UHGV virus genome: UHGV-0350075
Source of the DNA: a virus
Reading direction: 5' to 3' (one strand)
Length of the DNA: 53,531 nt
Part shown: piece after piece, positions 2,267 to 52,238 of the stretch
Layout: each line of letters begins with the position of its first letter
Numbering within the stretch: position 1 is the first letter of the stretch
The notes under the pieces: generated by a model
Database searches by the model: none
The model's input: the letters and a program-made list of their open reading frames with translations, nothing else
Told to the model about the DNA's origin: nothing
Position numbers and translations under genes: made by a program

Positions 2267-2282
2267 TGTGATCGCAATCACA
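2267..2282. promoter_or_regulatory. CRP-like palindrome TGTGATCGCAATCACA
   Basis: Perfect TGTGA-N6-TCACA in intergenic 2187..2285, next to GTTTACAAAACGG and GTACAAAATGTA motif copies. Confidence 0.4.
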
Positions 2283-2285
2283 ATA

Positions 2286-2906
2286 TTAATGAAGTACGCG
2301 CTTTTCAGGTTCAGGCATTGGCTGTGACATTTTTCGTGCTTCATTAAGCATAGATATAGCCGCCTGCACGCCTAAATCATTTGCACGCATGTTAATACCA
2401 ACCATTTCGCCATAAAACAACGGCATGATCGCCATTACGTCTTCCTCGTTGTGCCCTTCATCAATGCACTTCTGTAACGCTTTGGCCTCAAATATTTTCT
2501 TCATTACGCCGCGCACAGAATAAAGTGCAGCGCTACCCATATGGTTTTCGTCTAACGGGAAGATAACAGCACTGCCGAACGCCAGCGGATCAAGCTCTTC
2601 CGGCACTGGCACGCGACCATATTCTTCTTCCATGCGTTTCACAAAAGTGAGGCAGAAGACATAACGAGCTACAGCCGTTTTTTCTTCATTATCCAAAGAC
2701 ACATAGTCGCGCATCGATGCTTCCATCACAATATCAGCAACCTGTAACGCCAGATTCAAATCAGCGTCATATTTGCCAGCTTCCATATCTTTCAATACTT
2801 CGTGATAATCTTTAATTTCAACTTCATGAAAACTTGCGTCTTCAGTGTAGCGAGTGATTAACATGCCTTCGCTGCCGAGTGAATAAGCCGTTTTGATGTC
2901 TTTCAT
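2286..2906 (-). CDS. hypothetical protein
   Basis: Track ORF 206 aa; no motif recognised. Confidence 0.55.
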   Translation of the reverse strand: MKDIKTAYSLGSEGMLITRYTEDASFHEVEIKDYHEVLKDMEAGKYDADLNLALQVADIVMEASMRDYVSLDNEEKTAVARYVFCLTFVKRMEEEYGRVPVPEELDPLAFGSAVIFPLDENHMGSAALYSVRGVMKKIFEAKALQKCIDEGHNEEDVMAIMPLFYGEMVGINMRANDLGVQAAISMLNEARKMSQPMPEPEKRVLH

Positions 2907-2919
2907 GATATTTATCCTT

Positions 2920-3252
2920 TTATAGTGGGTGATGCCATTTCATTTCAGTTTCTGAATTAAACGGGTTTCCTTCGCTTGAAAGGAATAAATCACGCTCCCG
3001 TTTCAGTTCTTCCGGGCTTATTTCTATTTCATCAATCTGACCGAACGATCCCGGCATCATTCGTTTTAAATCAGATAGCGGACGCATAAGGCCGCAACCG
3101 CGTAACAGCATATCGACCGCGAATTGTCTACGTCCGGCGGCGTCATTAAAGCGCCGCGCCCAGGGCACAACCACGATCCGGCGTTCGAATTTGATAAATA
3201 GTGATAGTTTGTTTGTTTCGCTATCATATGCTTTATGGAATTTAATTTTCAT
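2920..3252 (-). CDS. hypothetical protein
   Basis: Track ORF 110 aa. Confidence 0.5.
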   Translation of the reverse strand: MKIKFHKAYDSETNKLSLFIKFERRIVVVPWARRFNDAAGRRQFAVDMLLRGCGLMRPLSDLKRMMPGSFGQIDEIEISPEELKRERDLFLSSEGNPFNSETEMKWHHPL

Positions 3253-3433
3253 TTAACACCTCGACGTATTGCTCAAGATGCCATTTACCAACTTCATCCA
3301 TGTTTTCGTCGTATATAATGACCTCTCCGCCTTGCCTGAATCTGAAAGCAGTGGCTGTAAATTCACGGCCCCACCACGCCTTTAAGCGCTCCCCACCTTT
3401 CAGGTGTTTAACCTTTACTTCTTTTATAGCCAT
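3242..3433 (-). CDS. hypothetical protein
   Basis: Track ORF 63 aa, overlapping neighbours. Confidence 0.4.
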   Translation of the reverse strand: MAIKEVKVKHLKGGERLKAWWGREFTATAFRFRQGGEVIIYDENMDEVGKWHLEQYVEVLNEN

Positions 3434-3696
3434 ACGCCGAACATCCCATTCAGTCCGGCGAACAATTTCCGCCAGTGGTCTTCAACATAAGCCCGGAACG
3501 GCTTAACGCGAACATTGCGGGCCTTCAGTTCAATCTTGTCGAAGAAACGCGGCTCTATAATTGTTCCGTCCAGATATTTAACCAGGATCGGGCGCTCAAG
3601 ATCGTTATATGTCTTGTTCAGCACAACCAGACCAGGGTCTTTACGGTATTCCGGGAGCACAACAAGATCACCCGTTTTGATATTCATGAATGGCAT
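3424..3696 (-). CDS. hypothetical protein
   Basis: Track ORF 3424..3699 begins on GTG; ATG at 3696 (MPFMNIK...) preferred, overlapping upstream stop (TGATG). Confidence 0.45.
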   Translation of the reverse strand: MPFMNIKTGDLVVLPEYRKDPGLVVLNKTYNDLERPILVKYLDGTIIEPRFFDKIELKARNVRVKPFRAYVEDHWRKLFAGLNGMFGVWL

Positions 3697-3812
3697 CACA
3701 TCACCCCGCCGATATAGCTAATAATTGCCGCAGTCGCGCCAGCTATTACCACCATGAAGACGAAAGCGACCACACAGAAAACAGCCTTGACAGTATTTTT
3801 GTCGACTCGCAT
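3696..3812 (-). CDS. hydrophobic microprotein (38 aa, MRVDKNTVKAVFCVVAFVFMVVIAGATAAIISYIGGVM)
   Basis: Own translation; SD-like TGAGGT upstream; fills gap between annotated genes. Confidence 0.35.
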   Translation of the reverse strand: MRVDKNTVKAVFCVVAFVFMVVIAGATAAIISYIGGVM

Positions 3813-3819
3813 ATAAACC

Positions 3820-3927
3820 TCACATGTCAGTAATCAGCTTAACAATCGCCACAGTGATATAGAGTGACGCACTAAGGTAAACAGCCGCCACAGCAACGGC
3901 GGCGGATAACATTGCAATCTTTTTCAT
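3820..3927 (-). CDS. hydrophobic microprotein (35 aa, MKKIAMLSAAVAVAAVYLSASLYITVAIVKLITDM)
   Basis: Own translation; ATG 3927 overlaps stop of 3924..4148 (ATGA); GGAGGGTGG SD. Confidence 0.35.
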   Translation of the reverse strand: MKKIAMLSAAVAVAAVYLSASLYITVAIVKLITDM

Positions 3928-4148
3928 TTGCCACCCTCCGCAATGAACTTATCAAGCCATTTGTTATTAGCCAGCCGTTCGGCATCTTCGCCGAATGATT
4001 TACGTTCGCTTAATTCCTGTCGAGTAGGGAAAGGCCATTTATCAACCCAGCCCGCAGACGTCTCGAATTCGTACAGCCCGCCGCCGAAAGTGATAAGCTC
4101 ATCAGCGCCGTCAGGAATTTCTCCGTCAACTTCTTTATCTTCGATCAT
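3924..4148 (-). CDS. hypothetical protein
   Basis: Track ORF 74 aa. Confidence 0.45.
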   Translation of the reverse strand: MIEDKEVDGEIPDGADELITFGGGLYEFETSAGWVDKWPFPTRQELSERKSFGEDAERLANNKWLDKFIAEGGK

Positions 4149-4162
4149 GATTTAATACCTCA

Positions 4163-4447
4163 TTAATCGTTAATAACCTGACCCATACGCCCGCGATATT
4201 TGCGCATACGTGGATCGACATATTCAGGCCAATGCATATCATCAGCTTTCTGTAGTGGGTAAAAACTTGCCTGCCAGTTGTCGAACCATATTTGCTTTGC
4301 GTACAGGTCACTAAATCTTTTCGCCATTCGATCCGCTGCCGTGCCGCATAAAAAAAGCCCGCGATCGATTTGATCACGGGCTTCTCTTAAAACTTGCTCT
4401 TTTGTTCGCGGCGGCGGCGGTGCTTTTAAATAATCACCCATCGCCAA
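4163..4447 (-). CDS. hypothetical protein
   Basis: Track ORF 94 aa; sits beside erf/ssb like P22 recombination accessory genes. Confidence 0.45.
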   Translation of the reverse strand: MAMGDYLKAPPPPRTKEQVLREARDQIDRGLFLCGTAADRMAKRFSDLYAKQIWFDNWQASFYPLQKADDMHWPEYVDPRMRKYRGRMGQVIND

Positions 4448-4456
4448 CCTATTGAA

Positions 4457-4873
4457 TCAGAACGGAATATCATCGTCGAAGTCCATCGGCGGCGGATTAT
4501 TCACGTTATTATTTTGAGGCGGTGGCGCTTTCTGCTGCTGGCCTTGCTGCTGGCCTTGTTGGTTAACGTTCATGAATTCAAATTCGTTAACCGCCACTTC
4601 TACCGCCGTCCCCTTCGTGCCGTCGTTCCGGTCATATTGCCGAACATCCAGGCGACCGCTTACCACTATTTTTCCACCCTTGCGGATATGCGGCGCTAAT
4701 TTTTCCGCACGCTCACCAAATACCAGGCAAGTGACCCACATTGTCCGCTTATTATCGCCGTAGCCATTCGTTACAGCTAACGGAAAACTACCAATCGCTT
4801 TCCCGTTTTGTGTGTAGCGAACCTCCATATCATTACCGATATTCCCGCCCAGCGTGATTGAATTTAAACTCAT
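4457..4873 (-). CDS. ssb: single-stranded DNA-binding protein
   Basis: 138 aa; Gln/Gly-rich linker and acidic C-terminal tail ...DFDDDIPF characteristic of SSB. Confidence 0.85.
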   Translation of the reverse strand: MSLNSITLGGNIGNDMEVRYTQNGKAIGSFPLAVTNGYGDNKRTMWVTCLVFGERAEKLAPHIRKGGKIVVSGRLDVRQYDRNDGTKGTAVEVAVNEFEFMNVNQQGQQQGQQQKAPPPQNNNVNNPPPMDFDDDIPF

Positions 4874-5514
4874 TAACCCATCTCCCCGTTAAGCTCTGCT
4901 ACCCGGATGTCATAAACATCTTTTGCCTTGATTCGATGCTCCGATCCTTCCGGTAGTAATTTCCAGCATTTGCCAAATATTTCACGCAGCTTGTTAGCGT
5001 CCTGCGCTTTCGCTGCTGCATCACAGAAACGTGCTAATACTTCATCAGGATTTGGCGGCGCTTTATTCTGCTGCGGTTGTTGTTTTGGTGGGTTTTTCTG
5101 TTGTCGCGGCTGCTGGCCTGTCTGCTTCGCGTAAGCATCAGTATCAGGATCGCGAGCATCATCTATACAGAATAAACCGTTCAAAGCATATTTACGCGCG
5201 TAACTTGATGTTGCTCCTGTTAGCTGGCTGGCGTCCATACCCTTCTTGCTTTCTTCCTCCCTGGCATAAGCAGTTACCGCTATTACGTCTTCACCGTCGC
5301 TTAGCGTCGCCGTTGCTTTCACATAATAGCGATTGCCGATCAGGACAATTTCATCACTAACAGTCAGCGTGATATTTTGAAGCAGTGGTTTAACCGCCTC
5401 TAAAATATCCTCCGCCGACCTGTAATTATATCCACCAAAATTATTACGCTGATTTTTCGGCGCGTTCAGCGTTTGCTGAATCGTCCATAGCTTTTTATGT
5501 AACTCTGTTTTCAC
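4873..5514 (-). CDS. erf: ERF-family single-strand annealing protein
   Basis: 213 aa; N-terminal half matches P22 Erf as I recall it (LNAPKNQ, YRSAEDILEAVKPLL, GNRYYVKATAT, GATSSYARKYALNGLF). Confidence 0.8.
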   Translation of the reverse strand: MKTELHKKLWTIQQTLNAPKNQRNNFGGYNYRSAEDILEAVKPLLQNITLTVSDEIVLIGNRYYVKATATLSDGEDVIAVTAYAREEESKKGMDASQLTGATSSYARKYALNGLFCIDDARDPDTDAYAKQTGQQPRQQKNPPKQQPQQNKAPPNPDEVLARFCDAAAKAQDANKLREIFGKCWKLLPEGSEHRIKAKDVYDIRVAELNGEMG

Positions 5515-5663
5515 TATTTAATCTCCCGTGCTGTTAACACTATGTATAAGGCTTTATTCGCGGCGCTCCACATTTCGGCATCGTGAAGCATTTCCGCTAC
5601 TGCCAGTTTGAATTGAAGCGCCTGAATAACCATAATGTCATCTCCGGATGTTTACATTTTGTA

Positions 5664-5954
5664 TTAATGATAGCGGACTTTATCCAGGGGTTTTTCCCCT
5701 AAATGTCGTGGTTGCGTTGCGTGGTAGTAGCTGCCGCTTTCATTTTCCGTATACCATTTTACTGATCCTTTGCGACGTTCTTTAATGCTATTTGGTTTGC
5801 ATCTTTCCTCGTTTGCAAATCGAATAGCTTTATCCACATTGTCTGTTTTATTGATTGCAGGTGATGATTTTCTTTCGTTTTCTCTTTTTATCCTTCTGCG
5901 TTCCCTGGCATTCATTTTGCTATCACATTTACCATATATAATTGTAACGCTCAT
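5664..5954 (-). CDS. N-like transcription antiterminator (P22 gp24-like)
   Basis: 96 aa; arginine-rich motif NARERRRIKRENERK near N-terminus; first gene left of repressor. Confidence 0.5.
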   Translation of the reverse strand: MSVTIIYGKCDSKMNARERRRIKRENERKSSPAINKTDNVDKAIRFANEERCKPNSIKERRKGSVKWYTENESGSYYHATQPRHLGEKPLDKVRYH

Positions 5955-6010
5955 AATCTGATCTCCGTATATCCTTGATGATACTTAATAAAAAATCATC
6001 TTCGTTAATT

Positions 6011-6048
6011 GCCGCACTTCCAGCGGCTGACCAGATTGTTAATGAGCG
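6011..6048 (-). promoter_or_regulatory. candidate nutL (boxA CGCTCATTAA + boxB hairpin GCCGCTGGAAGTGCGGC)
   Basis: Read on reverse strand upstream of N-like gene; boxA-like decamer followed 11 nt later by 5-bp stem hairpin. Confidence 0.35.
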
Positions 6049-6422
6049 GCTTAACATCTTTCAACTAATCCCGCAATCATCGCCGTTCCCTGCGTGACCT
6101 TGCTCACTCCAAGCAAGCTGACTCGTCGCCTTGCGTGCGGTTTCGTGGGGGATGTAACGCTTTAAACACCCCATGCGCCTTGTTATCAGTGCCGCTTTCG
6201 GTCCCCAATCGGGGAGTTACTCCACGGTTGACAAGGTGTTAAGCCTGATTTTTAAAGTGCCAGGAAGTTGCTTTTGTTACCTGCGCCCTTCCTTTGACTC
6301 GCAATATACGCCCCGTAAAACATCGAGTCAATCCATTTTGTATACTTTTTTAAAATATTTTATATGTCATTGATATTTAAATAATAAATAACGTTTTCTG
6401 TTTACGTTTTGGTGTTTTCCAG

Positions 6423-6448
6423 GCAAAGAAAAGCCGCCATTCGGCGGC
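6423..6448 (-). terminator. intrinsic terminator downstream of repressor gene
   Basis: GCCGCC-attc-GGCGGC hairpin followed on reverse strand by TTTTCTTT, 7 nt after cI stop. Confidence 0.5.
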
Positions 6449-6454
6449 TAATGT

Positions 6455-7102
6455 TTATGGCAGGTTTACGATCTTCGCATCAACCACCACGCCTATAATT
6501 TTTGATTCTGGATTCATAGGGATTGGCGGATACAGCGGATTGAGCGAACGTAAAAGCCTTTGACCTCCATCAATAATCAACTGTTTAAACGTCGGTATCT
6601 GCCCTTCCTCAAGCTGGGCTATAACCAGTTTGCCGTCAATAGCTGGCGCGTGCGGGTCAACAAGTATCATCGTCCCCGCCGGGATGCTTAACCCCTGCGG
6701 CGCGTTCATTGATTCACCTTTGGCAACCAGCCAGTAACTATCATCTGAACAAATAACGCTAGTCGTAACGTGTGGTAATGCTGATCGCCTTGTGTCATCC
6801 ATATTGTTTACTGTGTCCTTCCAGTCAATAACCGGGTAACTACCTAAATCACGCGGCGGTGCGGCCTGAAGTGTATTAGAAACAGAATCATCAATGACCA
6901 TACCATCATGTGTAACAGTGAACTGACGACGCCCAAGCGCCCGCATAATCCGCGCAATATCTTCAAGATTTGGCTCGCGGCGACCGTTAAGCCAGTGTGA
7001 CAGGCCGCCTTTAGTTATCCCCATGAGATCTGCGAGTGAATCCTGACTCATGCCCTGCGCCCGCATGAGCTGCTTTGCTAAGTCATACCATTTTGTTTTC
7101 AT
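6455..7102 (-). CDS. cI: CI-type prophage repressor (HTH + LexA-like S24 peptidase domain)
   Basis: 215 aa; N-terminal HTH, C-terminal GESM...K autocleavage-type motifs; divergent from rightward operon. Confidence 0.85.
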   Translation of the reverse strand: MKTKWYDLAKQLMRAQGMSQDSLADLMGITKGGLSHWLNGRREPNLEDIARIMRALGRRQFTVTHDGMVIDDSVSNTLQAAPPRDLGSYPVIDWKDTVNNMDDTRRSALPHVTTSVICSDDSYWLVAKGESMNAPQGLSIPAGTMILVDPHAPAIDGKLVIAQLEEGQIPTFKQLIIDGGQRLLRSLNPLYPPIPMNPESKIIGVVVDAKIVNLP

Positions 7103-7187
7103 GTCGCTACCCTATAACCTCAAAAAGTTTGATGCAAGTCACAAAACGTGTATTTTAAGCCTTGATCTTAAAATTCCATTTTGTAAA

Positions 7188-7226
7188 CTTGCAGACAAGG
7201 TAAGGCCATACTTGCAAAGACGCAAG
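7188..7226. promoter_or_regulatory. candidate operator palindromes (CTTGcagaCAAG; CTTGCaaagacGCAAG)
   Basis: Two inverted repeats with CTTGC half-sites in the 306-bp region between repressor and first rightward gene. Confidence 0.3.
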
Positions 7227-7266: not shown

Positions 7267-7298
7267 GCTCTTTAAAAATCCGGTGTCGCTGCGAAGCG
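7267..7298 (+). promoter_or_regulatory. candidate nutR (boxA GCTCTTTAA + hairpin CGCTgcgaAGCG)
   Basis: boxA-like motif then GNRA-loop hairpin on forward strand upstream of first rightward gene. Confidence 0.3.
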
Positions 7299-7408
7299 AA
7301 AAACAAATATCACGCAACGGCGGGATCTGTTGAGCGGTCAGTCACTGCTATCTAATGCTAATGGGATGCCCGCCCGCGCGTTCACTCTAACCATAGGAGA
7401 AAAACAAG

Positions 7409-7663
7409 ATGAGTATGCACATGATGAATGAAGCATGGAACGTAAAACTTAACAGCCCGATCCAAAAACTTGTCTTAATTGCGTTTGCAGAAAAGGCAGA
7501 CAATAAAGGCCGCGCACATGCTTCACGCGAAGAGATCGCAAAAGTGTGCGAACTGCCACTGCATACTACTGTTGACGCATTAAATTCATTGATCCGCAAA
7601 GGATTCATTAAACGCGCTGACGAATACGGCGACATTTATGACATTGCATTGCCGGAGGAATGA
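7409..7663 (+). CDS. winged-HTH DNA-binding protein (HTH_36-like); first gene of rightward early operon
   Basis: 84 aa; AGGAGA SD 8 nt upstream; pattern KLVLIAFAEKADNKG...EEIAKVCELPLHTTVDALNSLIRKGFI. Confidence 0.55.
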   Translation: MSMHMMNEAWNVKLNSPIQKLVLIAFAEKADNKGRAHASREEIAKVCELPLHTTVDALNSLIRKGFIKRADEYGDIYDIALPEE

Positions 7664-9114: not shown

Positions 9115-10233
9115 ATGTCACAAAGAAAGATCAGCGATGAACAGTTAATCGCTGAACATAATAACGGTCTGACGTATAAACAGATCGCAGAAAAATATGG
9201 CATGGCAAAACGCAACGTCGAACGCCTGGGCGCACGGTTGGCGAAACGCGGTTTAATATCCACGCGCCGCGCACCGGGTTTTGGCGTCAATGCTGAGTCA
9301 TTGCTCGTCGATAAGGATGGCAATGTGATTATGCGCTGGATTAAAACAGCCCGTGACCGCGATGAAATGGAAATGCTAATGCAATCGGCTTGTGATGCTT
9401 TCACGGAAGAGATACCACGCGCGGAGGCCGTGCCAGTGCCGGAAATTGATTTTCAAAAAAGCCTGGCCCTTTATCCGGTATTCGATCTGCATATCGGGGC
9501 GCTTGCTCATAAAGCTGAATGCGGTGAGAGCTACGACACCGGGATCGCTGAACGCGTGCTAAATGACTTCTTCGACTACGCGGTAGGCGCTGCGCCAATG
9601 TCTGAAAAGGCTGTTTTGCTTCTCGGCGGTGATGTGCTTCACACTGACGGCCTGTTACCAGTGACGCCATCAAGTAATCACGTTTTAGATTGTGATTCAC
9701 GCTACGCAAAACTGGTTTATGTGGCGATCCGGTCGGTCCGGCGTGCGGTCGGGAAGATGTTACTAAATCATAAGGATGTCGAGATCCAGGTATTATCCGG
9801 TAATCACGACCAATCAGGTATGATCTGGCTACGTGCTGCGCTGGCGGCTTTTTACGAAGATGAACCGCGTGTGACGGTTGATGTGTCACCTGCTATCGTC
9901 CATCACACACAGTACGGCAAAACATTTCTTGCTTACCACCACGGGCACACTATCAAAAAGCCAGAAAATTTACTTTCTGCCTGCGTTTCTGACTGGCGGG
10001 AGGATTTCGGCAAGTCGTCGTCTGTTTACGCTCATTGTGGACACTGGCATCACCAACGGCTGATTGAATCATCGTTGGGCGTTGTTGAGTACCACGGCAC
10101 GTTAGCTGGCAAAGACGCTTATTCAACGAATGGCGGCTGGCGGTCGCGGCGGCTGGCTGCGGTAATAATTTACAGTCCTGATCATGGGGAAATCGGGCGC
10201 TTTGTTTATTACCCTGAATATTCCATTTTGTAA
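9115..10233 (+). CDS. HTH domain fused to calcineurin-like metallophosphoesterase domain
   Basis: 372 aa; N-terminal HTH (LTYKQIAEKYGMAKRNVERL); motifs DLHIG, GGDVLHTDG, GNHD, HHGH, GHWHH in phosphoesterase order. Confidence 0.6.
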   Translation: MSQRKISDEQLIAEHNNGLTYKQIAEKYGMAKRNVERLGARLAKRGLISTRRAPGFGVNAESLLVDKDGNVIMRWIKTARDRDEMEMLMQSACDAFTEEIPRAEAVPVPEIDFQKSLALYPVFDLHIGALAHKAECGESYDTGIAERVLNDFFDYAVGAAPMSEKAVLLLGGDVLHTDGLLPVTPSSNHVLDCDSRYAKLVYVAIRSVRRAVGKMLLNHKDVEIQVLSGNHDQSGMIWLRAALAAFYEDEPRVTVDVSPAIVHHTQYGKTFLAYHHGHTIKKPENLLSACVSDWREDFGKSSSVYAHCGHWHHQRLIESSLGVVEYHGTLAGKDAYSTNGGWRSRRLAAVIIYSPDHGEIGRFVYYPEYSIL

Positions 10234-11752: not shown

Positions 11753-12310
11753 ATGAGCATTGAACTTGAAGCAAAAATTATCAATATCCTTGAACTTGAT
11801 GGCATCGCAACAATGCACCAGCTACGCCAGAAAACAGGATTATCAGCGGAATACGACGAAGCCGGATGCTTGCCGGAAACAGTTAAACACCTGATCGACA
11901 CTAATCTGGTTGAGCGGGTGTATACATATTTTGGCCCGCGCCGCCGCTTGCTGGGCTATCGAATTAAATATTTATACGAACAACGACGCGAGCGTGTAGC
12001 CGCGTTATTTACTGGCTACAACGTTAGAAAGCGAATGAGAGATATTAGCGCGGAAACTGGCATTCCGTGGAATTACCTTTCGCGCACGCTGCGTTTAATG
12101 GTGCTGGATGAAACGCTTTGCATAGATACCAATAAACACGGCCTTAATTTTTACTCACTGTTTAAACCTGGTCGCTTTGGTCACGCTAATGATCTCGCGT
12201 TTGATTTTGACAGCCGCCTGAACGAATACCGGAAAAATAACGGCCTGCTACCGGATAAACCAGTATTTGAGATCGAAAAACTTAACGGGGAAACGGGGTT
12301 AGAATTATGA
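11753..12310 (+). CDS. hypothetical protein
   Basis: Track ORF 11717..12310 trimmed to ATG 11753 (MSIELEAK...) with GAGG SD. Confidence 0.5.
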   Translation: MSIELEAKIINILELDGIATMHQLRQKTGLSAEYDEAGCLPETVKHLIDTNLVERVYTYFGPRRRLLGYRIKYLYEQRRERVAALFTGYNVRKRMRDISAETGIPWNYLSRTLRLMVLDETLCIDTNKHGLNFYSLFKPGRFGHANDLAFDFDSRLNEYRKNNGLLPDKPVFEIEKLNGETGLEL

Positions 12311-13997: not shown

Positions 13998-14215
13998 TGG
14001 ATAAGATCGGGACAATACTTATTAACCGTGAGCAAGTGCAAAAAATGTTAGGCGGGCTTAGCAAGTCCGCCTTTTTTAAGCTCGTTAAAAAATGGAAAGA
14101 AGCGGGAACTCCTTTCCCTGAACCTGTAAAGGGGATGCCAGCATTAAAGCGCGGGGGATCTCTTTACCGTTATCAGGACGTTATTTCATTTTGTAAATCG
14201 ATGGGCTTCATGTAG
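13997..14215 (+). CDS. putative excisionase-like HTH DNA-binding protein
   Basis: 72 aa; Xis/AlpA-like pattern (INREQVQKMLGGLSKSAFFKLVKK...); convergent with int, 3' ends overlap. Confidence 0.4.
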   Translation: MDKIGTILINREQVQKMLGGLSKSAFFKLVKKWKEAGTPFPEPVKGMPALKRGGSLYRYQDVISFCKSMGFM

Positions 14216-19185: not shown

Positions 19186-19201
19186 TGTGATCTGCGTTAC
19201 A
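19186..19201. promoter_or_regulatory. CRP-like site TGTGATCTGCGTTACA
   Basis: 8/10 match to TGTGA-N6-TCACA, 45 nt upstream of tail-fibre start; part of CCATTTTGTGATCTGCGT motif shared with 26624 and 31524. Confidence 0.35.
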
Positions 19202-19299
19202 TTTTTGACGTATACAAAATGTATTTATTGATTTATGTCAATGTTGCGTAAATGCGGTTTATGGATACTACAAACAACGAAACAACGGAGGGTAAGACA

Positions 19300-19539: not shown

Positions 19540-20168
19540 TCATAGGCATTGGTTTTAATGGCGGTGATAGCGTTCCCGTGGTTGATGTAGCCAGTAGGAT
19601 TAAATACGCCGCCAGCCGTAACACCGTAGATTCTTGTGTTGCTGCCGTTATAATATGCGGCAGCATAAATTGATGCTGAACCTTGCCCAACCACCGCGCC
19701 TAACAATTGAGGACAAATTGCGTACGATCCTGAAAGTGTCTGATCTATATTTATACCTCCACTATTACCTGGTGAACCGACTGTAACAATGTCTGTTAAT
19801 ATTCTTGATTCATTAGTTAACACCAGTTCCCCTGAAGCGTTCCAGATAGCCATCCCCCATTTAGGGAGCGAAGGCGGGAAAATAGAAAACACATATACAG
19901 TAGCAGTATATGTATTGTTAGTATCCCTACCAAAAGCGCAAAGTATCTGTCCAGAGTTAGCCCTGCTAACGCTTGCTGTGACACCGCCTATACTTGTTTT
20001 TACAAATACCATTACAGGCTTGTTTGTTGGGACTGTAATGTATCTTGATGTGTTTTGCGTTGGTGGACAAGAAATAGCTTGCCTTGTGTATAGACACATA
20101 GGCGTCGCTTCCGGTGTAACGAAAATATTCCCGTTACTTAATCTCAAATAAGCTCCGAATGTTGCCAT
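19536..20168 (-). CDS. hypothetical tail-associated protein
   Basis: Track ORF 210 aa downstream of J; Gly/Ser/Thr-rich. Confidence 0.5.
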   Translation of the reverse strand: MATFGAYLRLSNGNIFVTPEATPMCLYTRQAISCPPTQNTSRYITVPTNKPVMVFVKTSIGGVTASVSRANSGQILCAFGRDTNNTYTATVYVFSIFPPSLPKWGMAIWNASGELVLTNESRILTDIVTVGSPGNSGGINIDQTLSGSYAICPQLLGAVVGQGSASIYAAAYYNGSNTRIYGVTAGGVFNPTGYINHGNAITAIKTNAYD

Positions 20169-26623: not shown

Positions 26624-26639
26624 TGTGATCTGCGTCACG
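26624..26639. promoter_or_regulatory. CRP-like site TGTGATCTGCGTCACG
   Basis: 9/10 match to TGTGA-N6-TCACA, immediately upstream of L SD. Confidence 0.4.
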
Positions 26640-26734
26640 CTAAATCATACCAAAATGGATTGATCGCGGTTTATACAATATGTATATTTTACTCAAACGG
26701 AAGCACAGTTAACAAAATGGCGCGGAGGTGTGAG

Positions 26735-28190: not shown

Positions 28191-28215
28191 TTTACGCGCT
28201 TCTACGCGAAAAATG
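28191..28215. promoter_or_regulatory. conserved 25-bp box TTTACGCGCTTCTACGCGAAAAATG
   Basis: 22/25 identical to box at 40378..40402 upstream of portal; lies upstream of M. Confidence 0.4.
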
Positions 28216-28326
28216 AGATCTTCATCACAATGATTATAGCTAGTTTACAAAATGGCTTCACATAGTACGCAACAAGATGTATATAGAAAGCAAGAAGAAA
28301 AGCAGTACCAACGAAGGAGGCCCAAA

Positions 28327-31523: not shown

Positions 31524-31539
31524 TGTGATCTGTGTATCT
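31524..31539. promoter_or_regulatory. CRP-like half-palindrome TGTGATCTGTGTATCT
   Basis: Left half TGTGATCT conserved, 18 nt upstream of tape-measure start; CCATTTTGTATAAAG copy at 31572. Confidence 0.3.
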
Positions 31540-31764
31540 ATTTTATACAAATTGTCTTTACTATAACGACTCCATTTTGTATAAAGAGGCTAAAGGAAAG
31601 GGATAGAGTAAAGGGATTTAAAATGACCGGATAAACCGGAGGAAGTAAAAGAGGACAAGAAAATGAAAAACGCAAACTATCGTCCCAACGAACATGAACG
31701 CTATGCGGACTTCATAGAAGAAATGTTAAAAGCACTTAAAAACAAAAATTAATCGAGGCGGGTT

Positions 31765-32262
31765 ATGAAACTGTTAGTAAAAGTTGCGGTAGCTGCGGTC
31801 ATGGCGGTATTCGCGGCCAATGCAAATGCAAGTAATGAAGTTAGCAAGATGTGCGACGCTATTTATCCAGCCTACGAAAAAGCATATACAATGGCAAATG
31901 TAAACTTCTTTTCAATTGGTAGGCACGGCGTTAACTGGGAGTATTTCATCTTAAATGAAGATAGCAGGACCAAAAAAGGTGACGCTGAAATGATAAAAGC
32001 GCACGGTGAAAGTTTCGCTTTCGTGATGGCTGCTGCTGAAAACAAACAAAATGATAATGAATTTAAAAACTTTGTCGCTGGACTTGCCATCATGGCTGCT
32101 GAACGGGCGATAAAAGATCACGACAATAACGCTTATGCCGCTGCCGACGGGATGGCGTTAGATAGGGTAAGAATTGACTTCAAAAACATGTGCGTCAAAG
32201 AAGGTGCTAACATGTATAAAAAAGCAATAGATAAACACCACGAATATTCTATAGGTTATTAA
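31765..32262 (+). CDS. secreted/periplasmic protein of unknown function (moron)
   Basis: 165 aa; signal peptide MKLLVKVAVAAVMAVFAANANA; opposite strand; followed by terminator. Confidence 0.55.
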   Translation: MKLLVKVAVAAVMAVFAANANASNEVSKMCDAIYPAYEKAYTMANVNFFSIGRHGVNWEYFILNEDSRTKKGDAEMIKAHGESFAFVMAAAENKQNDNEFKNFVAGLAIMAAERAIKDHDNNAYAAADGMALDRVRIDFKNMCVKEGANMYKKAIDKHHEYSIGY

Positions 32263-45329: not shown

Positions 45330-45357
45330 AAAGCAAAAACCCGGCGCGGTGCCGGGT
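45330..45357 (-). terminator. intrinsic terminator 20 nt upstream of holin (tR'-like, candidate Q target)
   Basis: CCCGGC-accgc-GCCGGG followed on reverse strand by TTTTTGCTTTGTT, then GGAGG SD and holin ATG. Confidence 0.55.
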
Positions 45358-45419
45358 AATTACAATTTCGCATTGTTAGGAAATATTTTAATCTATTTGT
45401 TTTTTATGCGCGATTATGG

Positions 45420-46994: not shown

Positions 46995-47073
46995 CTTCTT
47001 GCCTCCCCTCCGCCTTTCCGTGGCTTATATATAACAAAATGGCACTGTCGAAACAATGCCATTTCGTATACAT

Positions 47074-47089
47074 TGTGATACAGATCACA
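47074..47089. promoter_or_regulatory. CRP-like palindrome TGTGATACAGATCACA
   Basis: Perfect TGTGA-N6-TCACA in 114-bp gap 46995..47108; flanked by ACAAAATGGCA and TGCCATTT. Confidence 0.45.
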
Positions 47090-47108
47090 TTTATGGTTGT
47101 CCAACGCC

Positions 47109-48480: not shown

Positions 48481-48836
48481 GATTTATCCCCGTAGATCTT
48501 GAATAGTTCGCGCTCTTCCTGGTCTTCAACTATCCCTATATGCAGATCACGCAGGCGGCGCATTGTGCGGAATCGTGGCCTGAACTCCTGACTGCGTTTA
48601 ATGTATTTGCCGCCAATTGAATAAATATGACCGTATGAGTACCATCTATTGCCTACCCATATTTCATATTCTTTGCCTTCGTAATTGAATTTTATCGTTA
48701 GCTCGCAGACTTCAACTATTAACCCTTTATCAATAATGTCATTGAGCATTTCGTCCCATTCTTTGAGGAATGGTTGTTGATAAAAACCAAAAAGCGTATT
48801 TACAGCGTGGCAAAGGTAATCAATGATTATTTGCAT
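48471..48836 (-). CDS. hypothetical protein
   Basis: Track ORF 121 aa. Confidence 0.5.
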   Translation of the reverse strand: MQIIIDYLCHAVNTLFGFYQQPFLKEWDEMLNDIIDKGLIVEVCELTIKFNYEGKEYEIWVGNRWYSYGHIYSIGGKYIKRSQEFRPRFRTMRRLRDLHIGIVEDQEERELFKIYGDKSWN

Positions 48837-48840
48837 ATTG

Positions 48841-49047
48841 TCACCACATCATATAGTAAACGTTATCATATGCTAATTCGTCTGCGTCTCTTTGACAGTC
48901 GATTGTTGCATCATCTTCGTGCCATTCTTTAGCAAATAAACGCGCCCATTTACGACGCTCACGTTTATTGTGCCGCAGGTCACTAAAAACCATTAAAGCC
49001 TTGTCGTAAGCTCTTACCATGCGTTTCATTCTACTTTTCATCTTCAC
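48841..49047 (-). CDS. hypothetical basic protein
   Basis: Track ORF 68 aa. Confidence 0.45.
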   Translation of the reverse strand: MKMKSRMKRMVRAYDKALMVFSDLRHNKRERRKWARLFAKEWHEDDATIDCQRDADELAYDNVYYMMW

Positions 49048-49246
49048 CCTTCCTTAATTCCTTAATTTCAATATTGCGTAACCGGACGTCGCACGGCGTT
49101 TCAGATTTACCAGTAAGCGCCAGCGCCAGGTTTTCAGGTGTCGTGCAAAGGATTATCTCTTTACCTGTGCTAAATTTAATTTCTATGCGGATCTCGTTTT
49201 CGTCACCGCACAATACACGGTTAATTGACAGGCCAGCTTTTTTCAT
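49031..49246 (-). CDS. hypothetical protein
   Basis: Track ORF 71 aa. Confidence 0.45.
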   Translation of the reverse strand: MKKAGLSINRVLCGDENEIRIEIKFSTGKEIILCTTPENLALALTGKSETPCDVRLRNIEIKELRKGEDEK

Positions 49247-49587
49247 TGCTCACCCCACCTTAACATCCAATTCACATCACATTTAATTGCGAATACCTTC
49301 ACCGGATCAGGACCGAATAATGGATGTGTGATAGTTTTAACTTCATAGCCAAAATAAGGAAGGTTAATAATCCTGTGTTTTTCGTGGTTGGCAGGATATC
49401 CCCATTTAATAATCAGGCGTTCATATTCCCGCCCTTCCAGACGTTTACGCCAATAGTCATTATAAAGCCGGTATTCCTCCACCTTCTTTCCAGTCCATAT
49501 GGCGTGGAAATATTCCCCTTTCAGATTCAAATGCAGGTCTTTACTTGCCATCGCTATGATCCTGTAAACAGTCGTTATAGCCTTCAA
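49243..49587 (-). CDS. ASCH/DUF3850-like domain protein
   Basis: 114 aa; pattern HLNLKGEYFHAIWTGKKVEEYRLYNDYW resembles ASCH-like fold proteins; true start may be MASKDL. Confidence 0.45.
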   Translation of the reverse strand: MKAITTVYRIIAMASKDLHLNLKGEYFHAIWTGKKVEEYRLYNDYWRKRLEGREYERLIIKWGYPANHEKHRIINLPYFGYEVKTITHPLFGPDPVKVFAIKCDVNWMLRWGEQ

Positions 49588-49819
49588 TGTATCCGGTTAA
49601 TCCGGTGTTACTCACTGACCATTCAGCAGAACGGCGCTTGATGGCTTCGTCCATCGTCATAACATCGACCGGATCTCTTAAGCCTATATATTTCCGCAAT
49701 TCCGTAATTATCACCGCCCTTAATTGTTGTGTATTTGAGTACGCCCTAGCCTTATCAGTTATTCCGTTTACAAGATTCCTAAATTCATGTTCTTTTAATT
49801 TAGGTTTCATCATCGTCAC
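49541..49819 (-). CDS. hypothetical protein
   Basis: Track ORF 92 aa. Confidence 0.45.
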   Translation of the reverse strand: MTMMKPKLKEHEFRNLVNGITDKARAYSNTQQLRAVIITELRKYIGLRDPVDVMTMDEAIKRRSAEWSVSNTGLTGYIEGYNDCLQDHSDGK

Positions 49820-50000
49820 CCCGTTTGTAAATTTTGACTGGCTTAATTGGGATGGCTGGTAATTCTCCTTCGTTTAACGCGCTCGCCATACCCAATATTA
49901 AGCGTGCTTCAGTACCAGTGACTTTCTTACACCATGCGCCGCCTGTTTTATCTTGAAATAAGATAACAGCAAACTGATCGTTTATTTCCAGCTTACCCAT
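49800..50000 (-). CDS. hypothetical protein
   Basis: Track ORF 66 aa directly downstream of Q. Confidence 0.45.
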   Translation of the reverse strand: MGKLEINDQFAVILFQDKTGGAWCKKVTGTEARLILGMASALNEGELPAIPIKPVKIYKRGDDDET

Positions 50001-50722
50001 TATTCACCCCGTGTCACTCGTTTAATCTCACTTTCCGCGCGGGCCTCTTCTTTGAATAGCTCCGCTATGGCGTCTTCATAGAAAACCCGGTATTTCTTCC
50101 ACCATGTTGATCTGCTTACCGGAAAAACAAGCTGATTAACCGCCTGCCGGACAAGATCTACAGGGAAACGTGAGTACCCGCGCCCGCCGCAATGCTGGCA
50201 CGTTTTAAACACTGGCATTTCCGCCGCTTCGCTGGCTGCTTTATCCGGTATTTCGCCGCGCCCCTTGCATTGTTTACAATGATTGCGAACCTTTCCATGC
50301 CCCTTGCATTTTTTGCAAAGGTGTTTTTCTCCGTAGTCGTCAAACGTAAATTTATATCCGCCGCACTCCATACAAGTTTTTTCCGTCGCGGCGCTTTGGC
50401 AATAATCCCGAAACGCGAAAACGGCAACAAGAATAATGAGATCATTGCGTTGTGCCTCGTTCAGTTCCATGACGTATTCATAATCTTTTGCCATAGCTCT
50501 TAAACGCTCTGTAAGCAAAACTACGGCCCTGTGTTTTTCGGCTTGTGATAGTTCCATCTTTCCCAAAAAAGCGCTATATCCAAGCTCTACGCGCGATTGC
50601 GCCATACCCGCAGCGGTTAGCGCATCCGTCGTATTAAGAGCGTCCGGGGACGTGCCCCGGCTTTCGTCAGATAATCGCGGTGATTTAGGAAAGTGGAATT
50701 TTAGAATGGATTCTAAATTCAT
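50000..50722 (-). CDS. Q: late-gene antiterminator Q (lambda Q-like)
   Basis: 240 aa; N-terminus MNLESILKFHFPKSPRLSD...AAGMAQS matches lambda Q as recalled; Cys-rich zinc-binding region. Confidence 0.8.
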   Translation of the reverse strand: MNLESILKFHFPKSPRLSDESRGTSPDALNTTDALTAAGMAQSRVELGYSAFLGKMELSQAEKHRAVVLLTERLRAMAKDYEYVMELNEAQRNDLIILVAVFAFRDYCQSAATEKTCMECGGYKFTFDDYGEKHLCKKCKGHGKVRNHCKQCKGRGEIPDKAASEAAEMPVFKTCQHCGGRGYSRFPVDLVRQAVNQLVFPVSRSTWWKKYRVFYEDAIAELFKEEARAESEIKRVTRGE

Positions 50723-50904
50723 TATTTGCCCTCATAACGTGCCGCCAGCCGTTTACGATCAGAAATGGATTGCACCAGCTTTCTTTCGAACTCTTTCAGC
50801 GCAAGTAATTCGCGCATGTGGAAAGCCTGGATTTGTCGGACCGTCTCTAAATCACGCTCGTCGCGCTGAATATCTATTTGCAGATCTTTAACTTCGTTTT
50901 TCAT
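50722..50904 (-). CDS. hypothetical coiled-coil protein
   Basis: Track ORF 60 aa between rusA and Q. Confidence 0.45.
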   Translation of the reverse strand: MKNEVKDLQIDIQRDERDLETVRQIQAFHMRELLALKEFERKLVQSISDRKRLAARYEGK

Positions 50905-51308
50905 TGCTCACCCCACATATTAGTCGCGTATTCGTCAATATCCGGTAGTAGGTCGCCGCGTTCGCGGATCTTAATAAACAAGCGTCCGCCTTTTACCTTC
51001 CGGCAGCGAACAATTTTTATTGAGTCGATTTGCCCGTCATCCTTCCAGAATCCGGCATAAGTAAGGCTGTCAAAAAGGCATTTAGGGATATTATCCAGAT
51101 CTCTGATCCGGTTATCCGGCGGCGCGGCGTAAATGGCAATTGCCAGTCGGCAAGGTAGGTTAATATTTAAATTTAATAGCTCGATGATGTCTCTTACTTG
51201 TTCCCTGTATTCCTTCCCCACTTTGCTGATATAGTGAAAACCGCGCGAATGTCGGTAATAGCGATTATTCGATGGCGGGTAAGGCAGGCTAAAAGAATAT
51301 TCATTCAT
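50901..51308 (-). CDS. rusA: Holliday junction resolvase RusA
   Basis: 135 aa; close to E. coli RusA as recalled (PPSNNRYYRH, RDLDN, FDSLTYAGFWKDD, KGGRL). Confidence 0.85.
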   Translation of the reverse strand: MNEYSFSLPYPPSNNRYYRHSRGFHYISKVGKEYREQVRDIIELLNLNINLPCRLAIAIYAAPPDNRIRDLDNIPKCLFDSLTYAGFWKDDGQIDSIKIVRCRKVKGGRLFIKIRERGDLLPDIDEYATNMWGEQ

Positions 51309-51910
51309 GCTGCCTTTCTCCTTAAGGCGTCCAATTTAGCCTGATAGATGTTTATTAGCTCCTTACATTCTGCAATCGTCCATTTATGCGTATCATTGTT
51401 GTTCTCCAGAGCTACCACCCTGGCGAGGCCAATTTTTCGAATCAGCGCCGGGCGATACCCTCCGATGTTGCCGTCTAGTGTCTGGTTGCAGTGCCTACAT
51501 TGCTTATGGCAATTATCCTCGTTGAAGCGAAGGTGTCCGGCGGCGGCTACCGTCCTGTAATGACCTGCATCCCACCCGCATTGCTCACCGTAGTAAGTCC
51601 CGCAAGATATACACGGCAAGCGCGCGTCACGTTCGCGAATATAGGCGTTAAATACATTTTGAACTTGTTTGATCCAATAACTACGCGGATTTAACTGTTT
51701 ACGCTTCCGGTTGCGTTCTTCCCTCTGGCTATCACGGCGTTTCTTCCGCTCCATAGCCTTCATAGCCTTCTCACGGTCGCGGCATAGCTGGTCAAACTTC
51801 AGTTCTTCCAGACATTCATCGCTGCACCACGTTTGATTGTGATATTTAGGCTCAAAAAAAACGCCGCAGCATTTGCAACGGCGTCTTATGGGTTTTTTAG
51901 GGTTTTGCAT
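51305..51910 (-). CDS. ninG: NinG/Rap recombination protein
   Basis: Track ORF (GTG 52000) trimmed to ATG 51910; RRRCK..C, PRSYWIKQ, LPCISCGT, WDAGHYRT, LRFNE, HKQC as in lambda NinG. Confidence 0.8.
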   Translation of the reverse strand: MQNPKKPIRRRCKCCGVFFEPKYHNQTWCSDECLEELKFDQLCRDREKAMKAMERKKRRDSQREERNRKRKQLNPRSYWIKQVQNVFNAYIRERDARLPCISCGTYYGEQCGWDAGHYRTVAAAGHLRFNEDNCHKQCRHCNQTLDGNIGGYRPALIRKIGLARVVALENNNDTHKWTIAECKELINIYQAKLDALRRKAA

Positions 51911-51924
51911 AAAAACCACCCCGA

Positions 51925-52101
51925 TTATTTTTGATTCTCTGTTTCGTTCAGCCTTTCGGCGTGTCCGGCCCTTAGCCAATGTTCTAAGCATTCGTTGCAC
52001 TCGTTACAGCCTCCTTTCTTCGTGCTGCATACATTGCACATTGCACGCATAACGCTTTCTCGTTCATAGTCGTCATGCCATTGGTAATTATCAAAAGGCA
52101 T
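51925..52101 (-). CDS. NinF-like small zinc-ribbon protein (58 aa)
   Basis: Own translation MPFDNYQWHDDYERESVMRAMCNVCSTKKGGCNECNEC...; 15 nt upstream of ninG, same size and position as lambda NinF. Confidence 0.4.
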   Translation of the reverse strand: MPFDNYQWHDDYERESVMRAMCNVCSTKKGGCNECNECLEHWLRAGHAERLNETENQK

Positions 52102-52222
52102 AATGCTCTCTCCTTTTCAGGTGATTTCTACGCATTTCAGCGCTGCCGGATTTTTAAAGAGCATTTTGTTTGCTTGAAGTATACAAAATGGATACGTGCT
52201 AACAAGGTGTAAAGCGCCATTA

Positions 52223-52238
52223 TGTGACATTCATCACA
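52223..52238. promoter_or_regulatory. CRP-like palindrome TGTGACATTCATCACA
   Basis: Perfect TGTGA-N6-TCACA in 159-bp gap 52102..52260; flanked by GTATACAAAATGG and GCCATTTTGTAAAC. Confidence 0.45.

Follow-up and report, generated by a model that had tools for sequence, protein, structure and literature searches.

CRP-type palindromes upstream of promoter-like motifs in a temperate coliphage of the mEpimmI group: candidate sites for host cAMP-CRP

Palindromes in the window and their match to the CRP consensus

The window, by which we mean the whole 53,531-nt stretch of DNA analyzed here, belongs to a temperate coliphage of the mEpimmI group, with mEp021, mEp010, and MagusPhagus among its relatives. 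In the human gut, mEpimmI phages are as frequent as lambdoid phages. The hosts on which the relatives were isolated are E. coli, in which CRP is present. Perfect copies of the palindrome TGTGA-N6-TCACA are located at 2267..2282 (site A), 47074..47089 (site C), and 52223..52238 (site B), against 0.06 expected in the window; none of 100 shuffled sequences contained three or more, and the excess over shuffles is >50-fold, which confirms what a sequence-only reading of this DNA had reported for these three. With up to one mismatch allowed, nine sites are found in the window against 1.22 expected, and the shorter GTGA-N6-TCAC occurs seven times against 0.61. The one-mismatch sites begin at 26624 (E), 19186 (F), 7128 (G), and 28214 (H); two further ones, at 9628 and 41905, are intragenic, have low scores, and are in line with chance expectation.

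The sequence-only reading had listed six sites, including a near-perfect trio at 19186, 26624, and 31524. The first two are borne out, each with one mismatch, whereas the third (site D) was over-called, as it carries three mismatches and is better described as a half-site, TGTGATCT; the list also missed two intergenic, conserved one-mismatch sites, at 7128..7143 and 28214..28229. The full 22-bp motif N3-TGTGA-N6-TCACA-N3 is matched perfectly by A, B, and C and with one mismatch by E, F, G, and H, while D fails it. With D counted as a half-site, the phage has ~8 candidate CRP-type sites.

The scoring with a CRP matrix that had been proposed earlier picked out the same set. The matrix is approximate, being rebuilt from individual CRP sites, one of which (gal) was mis-registered. 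On it, C, E, B, F, G, H, and A are precisely the seven top-scoring matches of the whole 53.5 kb, with scores of 14.6–18.9 (the lac site scores 15.0 on the same matrix). Scores of at least 14 on this approximate matrix are reached by seven sites, against 0.30 expected in the window; site D scores 10.1.

Promoter-like motifs at fixed distances from the palindromes

Each site is accompanied by a predicted promoter in which the motif CCATTTTG, present in 14 copies against 0.9 expected, directly adjoins a −10-like hexamer. A palindrome is found at 8 of 21 instances of the motif, always on its upstream side, and the site-to-motif spacings (20, 39–40, 42–43, or 50 nt) are fixed for each site. A neutral sigma-70 scan called only promoter B and the plus-strand promoter at E, and made no call for the other six of the eight, including those at C, D, G, and H and that at A, which was missed because of its poor −35.

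Three of the sites lie in the N-to-Q-to-lysis region. Site A (TGTGATCGCAATCACA) is situated between gp25-like and gp26-like early genes, and its predicted promoter core, CCGTTTTG followed by the −10-like TAAACT, is on the minus strand at 2222..2235; the end of the site and the end of the motif are 39 nt apart in all 46 relatives. The arms of A in relatives are mostly C/A/TGTGA..TCACA, and the matrix score is 14.6 here and at least 12 in 43% of relatives. Site B (TGTGACATTCATCACA) separates a cytosine methyltransferase gene from the NinF/NinG-Q block. Predicted promoter B, on the minus strand at 52178..52205, has TTGTTA, 16 nt, and TATACT with CCATTTTG in the spacer, at 39 nt from the palindrome in 47 of 48 relatives. 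Directly downstream on the same strand, at 52130..52163, are a nutR2-like boxA (TGCTCTTTAA) and a boxB hairpin, the position of nutR2 being that given in PMC11893012. Across 26 distinct relatives with 15 different spacers, the arms of B (T/CGTGA..TCACA) are invariant, and the matrix score is at least 14.9 in all. Site C (TGTGATACAGATCACA; minus strand, AAATGTGATCTGTATCACAATG) has the highest matrix score in the window, 18.9. On the minus strand at 47028..47033 a −10-like TATATA (TATAAA in some relatives) follows CCATTTTGT, with TTGTTT 17 nt upstream; in each of 32 orthologues the motif is 39 nt from the site. One half of C, AAATGTGATCT, is conserved among relatives; its partner arm reads TCACA, TCGCA, or CCGCA. 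The module is not found in mEp021.

Site G (7128..7143; TTTGATGCAAGTCACA) is intergenic, between the repressor gene and a cro-like gene, and has a matrix score of 16.0. At 40 nt from it, on the plus strand at 7162..7189, is a predicted early promoter (TTGATC, 16 nt, TAAACT, CCATTTTG in the spacer), after which comes a nutL-like boxA (7267..7278). The nut sites downstream of promoters B and G are what real promoters would show (PMC11893012). We considered G as a CI/Cro-type operator and rejected the idea, since the immunity region has one TGTGA-type site only, ~60 nt upstream of the early −10, and the repeated palindromes of the region, at 7188..7199 and 7211..7226, are of the CTTG(C)..(G)CAAG type. 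A Q-binding element (qut) was likewise rejected: the TAAAAT promoter-like sequence and t5-like terminator upstream of the holin gene (45390..45335) are without such a palindrome, and three sites are either upstream of Q or distant from it.

The remaining four sites are in the late region. Site D (31524..31539, plus strand; TGTGATCTGTGTATCT) retains the conserved half-site beside a degenerate second arm; it is absent even from the two-mismatch list and has a median matrix score of 12.1 in relatives. The predicted plus-strand promoter at 31557..31585 (TTTACT, 17 nt, TATAAA, CCATTTTG in the spacer) is 40 nt from D in 26 of 26 relatives, and faces a reverse-oriented accessory gene at about 31676..32262. 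Site E (26624..26639; TGTGATCTGCGTCACG, minus strand CGTGACGCAGATCACA) keeps its arms unchanged in 23 of 24 distinct relatives, across 12 different spacers, and has a matrix score of at least 12.4 in all. It has predicted promoters on both strands: on the plus strand, at 26660..26688, TTGATC, 17 nt, and TATATT face an accessory-gene island, the distance from E being 43 nt in 30 relatives and 42 nt in 15; on the minus strand, at 26644..26658, a core of CCATTTTGG followed by TATGAT is upstream of tail gene L, such that E would cover about +1..+16. At site F (19186..19201; TGTGATCTGCGTTACA; score 16.1 here and at least 12 in 83% of relatives), conservation holds for the TGTGATCT half, and the opposite arm reads TTACA or TTGCA. 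Its predicted plus-strand promoter core, ACAAAATG followed by TATTTA at 19214..19227, is 20 nt away in 35 of 35 relatives, and the gene downstream is a Cor-like superinfection-exclusion gene (phrog_1119). Site H (28214..28229; TGAGATCTTCATCACA) is intergenic; on its minus strand the TGTGA arm is mostly conserved, while the other is TCTCA, TCTTA, or TATCA, with 14 different spacers, and the score is 15.9 here and at least 12 in only 29% of relatives. The plus-strand core predicted for H, ACAAGATG followed by TATATA at 28272..28285, is 50 nt from the site in 44 of 44 relatives, and also faces an accessory-gene island.

The sequence-only reading was right about the overlap with the CCATTTTGTGATCTGCGT variant of the motif and about the distances from the late-region sites to start codons: the ATG of the tail-fibre gene (19140) is 45 nt from its site, that of L (26605) 18 nt, and that of the tape-measure gene (31506) 17 nt. 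But its conclusion that the sites are too close for class I or II activation does not hold, because these distances were taken to minus-strand tail genes; measured to the plus-strand promoter-like motifs, they are 20, 40, and 42–43 nt. The late-region sites fit predicted opposite-strand promoters of reverse-oriented accessory (“moron”) genes, rather than of the tail genes. The lesson is that when a regulatory site is located near a gene start, promoters on the opposite strand should be checked too.

With the hexamer placed at −12..−7, the palindromes would be centered at about −40.5 (F), about −60, i.e., −59.5 or −60.5 (A, B, C, D, G), about −63, i.e., −62.5 or −63.5 (E), and about −70.5 (H). 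Spacings of 20, 39–40, and 50 nt are whole helical turns apart, with H one turn farther out than the 39–40 nt group and F two turns nearer. Class I and II CRP promoters of E. coli are exemplified by lac P1, with the site at −61.5, and galP1, with the site at −41.5. Apart from E, which is off phase, the estimated phage centers come to within ~1 bp of canonical class I or II positions (−41.5, −61.5, −71.5), those near −60 being 1–2 bp short. Our reference for the CRP motif and the −61.5 and −41.5 positions is PMC10199772.

Conservation of the sites and identity of the binder

The palindromes were compared across ~46 related phages, whose closeness (85–100% identity) means that they are not independent samples. 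Within this set, the GTGA/TCAC core has an entropy of 0.18, against 0.78 for the central 4 nt (p = 1.6e-8) and 0.42 for the flanks (p = 6.5e-4). A conserved core around a variable center marks the palindromes as probable protein-binding sites. The first base of the arm is variable (T/C/A), as in CRP logos, and, again like the CRP consensus, the match reaches past the pentamers (AAATGTGATCT and AGATCACA). By site, the core-conservation signal is strong at B and E and partial at A, C, F, and H; A and H have weak matrix scores in most relatives. The signal is uninformative at G, which is invariant including its spacer and overlaps an ACTTGCA operator-like repeat. At B and C, conserved arms with a variable center would be expected equally of an RNA stem-loop, as B is a hairpin stem and C adjoins a hairpin. 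The flanks of the modules are mosaic across relatives, yet the sites persist.

We looked for a CRP/FNR homologue in the window and found none (best E-value in tblastn with E. coli CRP, 2.8). Searches of candidate early proteins against Pfam, PHROGs, and PDB were negative for a cNMP-binding domain or Crp-type HTH, and AF2 models of two of these proteins were of poor quality. Because the sites are the top matrix matches, have conserved contact tetramers with a variable center, and occur in a phage that has no CRP/FNR homologue, their description as CRP-type predicted regulatory sites is supported. That they are host cAMP-CRP sites built into phage sigma-70 promoters is a reading to which we give roughly an even chance.

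A different binder, either a dimeric regulator encoded by the phage or a non-CRP host factor, may instead read GTGA-N6-TCAC and co-operate with a reader of CCATTTTG, the match to CRP being mimicry or coincidence. In IMG/VR, the composite of palindrome, ~31 nt, and CCATTTTGTA is restricted to this phage group (37 of 40 matches, the other three looking like chance), the abundance of CCATTTTG points to a phage-specific transcription signal, and the phage encodes several uncharacterized early proteins as well as HTH proteins. We nevertheless regard such a binder as unlikely: the searches described above gave neither a CRP/FNR-like protein nor another obvious candidate, the consensus match extends past the pentamers, and site G is at an early promoter that has to work before any phage protein has been made.

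The sequence-only reading had also suggested that the palindromes are operators or overlap leader RNA. They might then serve mainly minus-strand promoters (tail restart, repressor gene), with the bound protein blocking initiation or early elongation. Sites D, E, H, and G do lie at about +1..+20 of conserved minus-strand hexamers (TATAAA, TATGAT, TATAAT, and TAAAAT), and there is a precedent in phage T1, whose promoters are repressed by CRP. However, the distance from the minus-strand hexamer to TCACA varies (14, 16, or 19 nt), whereas that to the opposite-strand motif is invariant; at F it is the plus-strand “−10” that is conserved and not the minus-strand one; and no comparable downstream relationship exists for A, B, and C. 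As the main function this seems to us quite improbable, while as a second effect of the bound protein the overlap is a possibility.

The hairpins at B and C raise the question of whether the palindromes act as RNA stem-loops (intrinsic terminators, or processing sites where gene blocks meet) rather than as protein-binding DNA. Site B is the core of an extended inverted repeat with a 16-bp stem (52213..52248, minus strand; −22.8 kcal/mol, z −6.9), which corresponds to the predicted terminator TERM_4 (t4) of mEp021, annotated at 20087..20120; for the full intergenic region around B, folding gives z −5.2. Site C is followed, 7 nt downstream, by a 15-bp hairpin (47034..47067, minus strand; −23.5 kcal/mol, z −5.6) whose 3′ arm is the CCATTTTGT motif, and which is the ARNold-predicted terminator T7 in the mEp044 annotation; in 22 relatives it has zero broken pairs and all changes are wobble-compatible. 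Thus, in the GenBank annotations, B is the t4 stem and the neighbor of C is T7. Both are software predictions only, t4 being listed as predicted, not demonstrated (PMC11893012), and they leave the other six sites and the fixed spacing to −10-like hexamers unexplained. Against an RNA function, the palindromes other than B form stems of 5–6 bp that are no more stable than those of shuffled sequences (z −0.4 to −2.0), and F, H, and D are unable to pair. In relatives, 95.7% of cells in the B hairpin are paired, but compensatory changes are absent, and 13 of 26 sequences have lost the U-A pair at position 1 of the arm. The arms hold one sequence, beyond mere complementarity, and the B stem lacks a proper U-tract, being followed by only 3–5 T, and is not called by a terminator scan. 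We consider this reading very unlikely.

Lastly, chance matches or a duplicated promoter module, with sites that have no function of their own, could be entertained given that the relatives are closely related and that D, E, and F have TTTTGTGATCTG(C/T)GT in common, which could mean a shared origin, but the excess over shuffles, cores that are more conserved than flanks around centers that are less so, and the persistence of the sites amid mosaic flanks make this extremely improbable.

A working model of host control and its implications

Under the host cAMP-CRP reading, the promoters would form one family, with a CCATTTTG core, then a −10 hexamer, and a CRP site upstream. In A, B, C, D, and G, the site would be 39–40 nt upstream of the core, placing its center near −60, while F would occupy the class II position, near −40.5. 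CRP-cAMP would activate the early promoter for the cro-like and replication genes, three internal promoters of the long N-to-Q-to-lysis operon, one of which would feed nutR2 and Q, and four promoters of reverse-oriented accessory genes in the tail region, including the Cor exclusion gene. Where promoters are back-to-back with minus-strand ones (that of the repressor gene and the putative restart promoters of the tape-measure, M, and L genes), the same bound CRP would lie over about +1..+20 of the latter, with possible dampening. A restart promoter at the tail-fibre junction is doubtful, because the minus-strand −10 is not conserved there.

This arrangement resembles class I and II CRP promoters of E. 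coli in having the same 22-bp motif, with contacted positions conserved and a free center, helical-turn spacings, and, at several of the phage promoters, a weak −35. It differs in the CCATTTTG spacer motif, in centers estimated to be 1–2 bp short (with 26624 off phase), and in being known from sequence alone. In phage T1, cAMP-CRP directly controls the promoters pir, dam, and recE, which it was shown experimentally to repress (Laganenka et al., 2019; PMC6737242). In both cases, host CRP acting on coliphage promoters would tie phage development to sugar supply; here, however, it is a geometry of activation that we infer, at ~8 promoters of an unrelated family of temperate siphophages.

Moron genes with their own promoters include cor of phi80, N15, and HK022, and bor and lom of lambda. 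The accessory genes described here are likewise reverse-oriented or independently transcribed late-region cargo, with a promoter for each unit, and one of them is Cor-like. Unlike known morons, the four accessory-gene islands seem to be built on a single promoter design that includes a CRP-type site upstream; we found no report of this for the phage group in the literature searched. Neither did we find a promoter map for the group in its 2025 description (PMC11893012), the 2023 mEp021 antitermination paper being outside our search; the present analysis offers a first working one.

The sites suggest that the phage may sense the metabolic state of its host through them. In a more ambitious version, for which we see only a slim prospect, a phage-wide cAMP-sensing circuit would toggle ~8 back-to-back promoter pairs through one host regulator. 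The early lytic promoter, a Q booster, and the accessory islands would be switched on while the repressor-gene and tail restart promoters were damped, so that the choice between lysis and lysogeny, exclusion, and late timing would track the carbon status of the host. The alternative would be a phage protein that has taken on the DNA specificity of CRP. If CRP does bind these sites, host cAMP would govern the early promoter, the lysogenic-conversion genes, and the expression of Q in a prevalent and little-studied family of gut coliphages, providing a testable link from diet or carbon supply to prophage behavior and superinfection exclusion.

Palindromes in the window and in related phages

The window belongs to a temperate siphophage of the mEpimmI group (described in PMC11893012). 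The Escherichia phages mEp010, mEp044, mEp021, and MagusPhagus, relatives whose hosts are E. coli, match it with 86–97% identity over long stretches, and the window runs in the opposite orientation to mEp021. One long minus-strand operon starts from the N-like gp17 gene (5664..5954, −), continues through the recombination genes, methylases, NinG, Q (50000..50722, −; Pfam Antiterm), lysis, head, and tail genes, and extends to ~14200, passing across the window ends. The gene for a CI-like repressor (6455..7102) is on the minus strand, the cro-like and replication genes are on the plus strand, starting at 7409, and the minus-strand genes of the tail region are broken up by small plus-strand accessory-gene islands.

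The sequence-only reading had listed six palindromes of the type bound by the host cAMP receptor protein (CRP), TGTGA-N6-TCACA (motif from PMC10199772), and the observation is far above chance and largely real. Perfect copies are indeed found at 2267 (site A), 52223 (site B), and 47074 (site C), against 0.06 expected, and no shuffle gave three. The sites at 19186 (F) and 26624 (E) are near-perfect, as described, with one mismatch apiece; that at 31524 (D), which had been placed in the same class, has three mismatches (TGTGATCTGTGTATCT) and is a half-site only. When up to one mismatch is allowed, the window holds nine palindromes (1.2 expected), including two intergenic sites that had been overlooked, at 7128 (G) and 28214 (H), and two intragenic ones that resemble the chance background. 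Positions 9628, 41905, 23260, and 6093 were dropped as intragenic or low-scoring.

The palindromes were then scored with a CRP weight matrix built from 17 E. coli sites, with gal mis-registered, which makes all scores approximate. By this approximate measure, the seven best positions in the window are C, E, B, F, G, H, and A, with scores of 14.6–18.9 (lac, 15.0), so that seven sites reach at least 14 where 0.30 are expected; site D scores 10.1. The eighth position, AACCGTGAGCAAGTGCAAAAAA at 14027..14042 (13.6, equally approximate), is close to where the replication operon ends and the integrase region begins. A further GTGA-N6-TCAC, GTGACCTTGCTCAC at 6094..6107, is located between the repressor and N-like genes and scores 10.1; on the operon strand, mEp021 has the same sequence down to the spacer, at position 12165.

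From IMG/VR, we gathered ~46 contigs of related phages, in the regions of NinG, Q, and the tail gene L, and aligned each junction. The sites are kept in these relatives, unevenly from site to site. At site B, the arms T/CGTGA..TCACA are constant in 26 distinct sequences with 15 spacer forms, and at site E, CGTGA..TCACA is kept in 23 of 24 sequences with 12 spacers. With seven sites pooled, mean entropy is 0.18 in the GTGA/TCAC columns, 0.78 in the central four bases (Mann–Whitney p=1.6e-8), and 0.42 in the flanks (p=6.5e-4). Judged from these alignments, the conserved arms and varying centre have the pattern of a protein-binding palindrome. The loosest base is arm position 1 (T/C/A); CRP logos are likewise loosest at the first arm base. 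On the approximate matrix, the score is strong in all relatives at B, E, and G, and is kept strong in 83% of relatives at F, 77% at C, 53% at D, 43% at A, and 29% at H. One arm of site C drifts to TCGCA or CCGCA. The conservation of site G is uninformative, since its spacer is invariant too and it overlaps an operator-like ACTTGCA repeat. The promoter/hairpin module around site C (46995..47108) is mosaic in comparison with L082-L127 and L002: relatives differ wholly in what precedes the palindrome and in what follows the −10, and mEp021 is without the module altogether.

A promoter-like motif at fixed distance

The motif CCATTTTGT occurs 14 times in the window (0.9 expected), with copies at, among other positions, 6333, 7176, 10223, 28255, 31572, 47042, 52191, and 52247. 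Directly 3′ of it there is nearly always a −10-like hexamer (TATACT, TAAACT, TATAAA, TATATA, TATATT, or TATTTA). The motif is usually oriented towards the next gene and looks like a phage-specific promoter signature; its CCATTTTG part may be read by a protein. At site B, the motif precedes nutR2 (boxA TGCTCTTTAA; PMC11893012), a boxA/boxB-like element at 52130..52163 (−), and at site G it precedes the nutL-like boxA of a boxA/boxB element at 7267..7300 (+); with nut sites downstream, both have the appearance expected of real early promoters. A neutral sigma-70 scan called promoter B (TTGTTA-16-TATACT) and a plus-strand promoter at E (TTGATC-17-TATATT), and left the remaining six of the eight inferred promoters uncalled.

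The distance from palindrome to motif end is constant across relatives, site by site. It is 39 nt at A (46/46 relatives), B (47/48), and C (32/32), 40 nt at D (26/26) and G, 50 nt at H (44/44), 20 nt at F (35/35), and 43 or 42 nt at E. Assuming that the hexamer occupies −12..−7, the palindromes would be centred at about −59.5/−60.5, −70.5, −40.5, and −63, whole helical turns apart if E is excepted; all but E fall within 1–2 bp of the canonical CRP positions, which are −61.5 and −71.5 for class I and −41.5 for class II (PMC10199772). The promoter-like motif has 21 instances, and a CRP-like site is found upstream of these eight only; the others score <4.

At D, E, F, and H, the fixed-distance motif is on the plus strand and faces reverse-oriented accessory genes, namely a Cor superinfection-exclusion gene (phrog_1119) at F and small genes of unknown function at the other three sites. 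The earlier objection had been that sites in the late region lie too near the starts of the tail genes; it falls away when the sites are assigned to the opposite strand. At F, the plus-strand −10 is conserved and the minus-strand "−10" is not. Owing to the back-to-back arrangement of the promoters, sites D, E, and H also cover about +1..+20 of minus-strand −10-like hexamers that are conserved, and site G does so for the likely repressor-gene promoter (TAAAAT, 7157..7152). Purely by inference, one site might possibly play a double role, with one promoter activated and the other damped.

Immunity region and late promoter

Just downstream of the early −10 are two palindromes, CTTGCAGACAAG and CTTGCAAAGACGCAAG (7188..7199 and 7211..7226, +), and a third ACTTGCA copy is inside site G (7133..7139); the CI-like repressor may have its operators in these three sequences. 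A nutR1-like element (about 6000..6050, −) precedes the N-like gene and is itself preceded by a canonical TTGACT-17-TATATT promoter (about 6320..6290, −). A perfect CCATTTTGTATACT (6333..6346, +), with no CRP-like site upstream, is antisense to the repressor gene: it points at the 3′ end of that gene and into the hairpin behind it, a terminator at about 6420..6445. A short transcript of about 90 nt, an antisense or small RNA, could be made from it. Just upstream of the holin gene, the segment 45335..45390 (−) contains a TAAAAT hexamer followed by a strong hairpin, CCCGGCACCGCGCCGGG, and TTTTT. It corresponds to t5 of mEp021 and is likely to be a Q-dependent late promoter with a terminator; neither a CRP-like site nor the CCATTTTG motif is present there.

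Identity of the binder

CRP-dependent promoters are the best-supported reading, to which we would give an even chance, and host CRP is the simplest candidate for the binder. The match to CRP sites runs past the pentamers (AAATGTGATCT at C and in D relatives; AGATCACA at D, E, and F), the relatives grow on E. coli, the promoter at site G must fire ahead of any phage protein synthesis, and no CRP/FNR homologue is found in the window. In coliphage T1, CRP acts directly on promoters (PMC6737242). We found no report of CRP sites in the mEpimmI group in the literature searched, a search outside which the 2023 paper on mEp021 antitermination fell.

Most of the eight palindromes, namely A, C, D, E, F, and H, contain GATC (as TGTGATC or GATCACA), and the phage encodes a Dam-type N6-adenine methyltransferase (459..998, −). 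Methylation state could affect binding. The ideal CRP consensus also includes GATC, and its presence may therefore mean nothing.

A phage-encoded protein may bind the palindromes instead of CRP, given that the composite of palindrome and CCATTTTG is confined to the mEpimmI group and several early phage proteins are uncharacterised. A composite-pattern scan of IMG/VR gave nothing informative beyond this group. The two candidates, a 206-aa protein encoded beside site A and a 197-aa MarR-like protein, had no Pfam or PDB match; in PHROGs, the former matches only a family of unknown function and the latter weakly matches a MarR-type regulator family. Single-sequence AlphaFold models of both were unusable (pLDDT 41–42).

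A hairpin role, in RNA or DNA, may coexist with protein binding at B and C, or explain the conservation there. Site B is the core of a hairpin with a 16-bp stem (−22.8 kcal/mol, z −6.9) that coincides exactly with TERM_4/t4, a predicted terminator in mEp021, and site C is 7 nt upstream of a 15-bp hairpin (47034..47067, −; −23.5 kcal/mol) that is annotated as a terminator in mEp044, has the CCATTTTGT motif as its 3′ arm, and in 22 relatives shows no broken pair and only wobble-compatible changes. Several observations speak against an explanation by RNA alone: covariation tests of both hairpins revealed no compensatory change, whichever direction was considered, half of the sequences break one pair in B, site B is without a good U-tract, and the other six palindromes have no significant stem, or no stem at all. 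A neutral terminator scan called none of the hairpins.

The whole B junction (52165..52270, −) folds into nested hairpins, with inverted copies of the CCATTTTGTA motif as the outer arms, and pairing of such copies gives long hairpins of −37 (52165..52270) and −23.5 kcal/mol (47034..47067), with z about −5. At both junctions, the plus-strand CCATTTTGTA copy is directed at a minus-strand gene from its 3′ side, with no gene of its own to drive, so that the motif pair may act there as a hairpin or symmetric binding site, rather than as two promoters. At site A (2242..2275, −), the right arm GCGATCACA can pair with another perfect inverted partner of 9 bp, TGTGATCGC, located 22 nt downstream. Relatives conserve this partner, which provides the region with an alternative hairpin (about −22 kcal/mol).

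The CI-like repressor and Q were rejected as binders, the former since the repeated palindromes of the immunity region differ in type and the latter since no such site is present at the likely late promoter upstream of holin.

If the reading of these sites as CRP-dependent promoters is true, it would provide a promoter map that can be tested, as well as a metabolic input, for a family of gut phages that is prevalent and little studied, and for that reason we consider the result to be of moderate interest.
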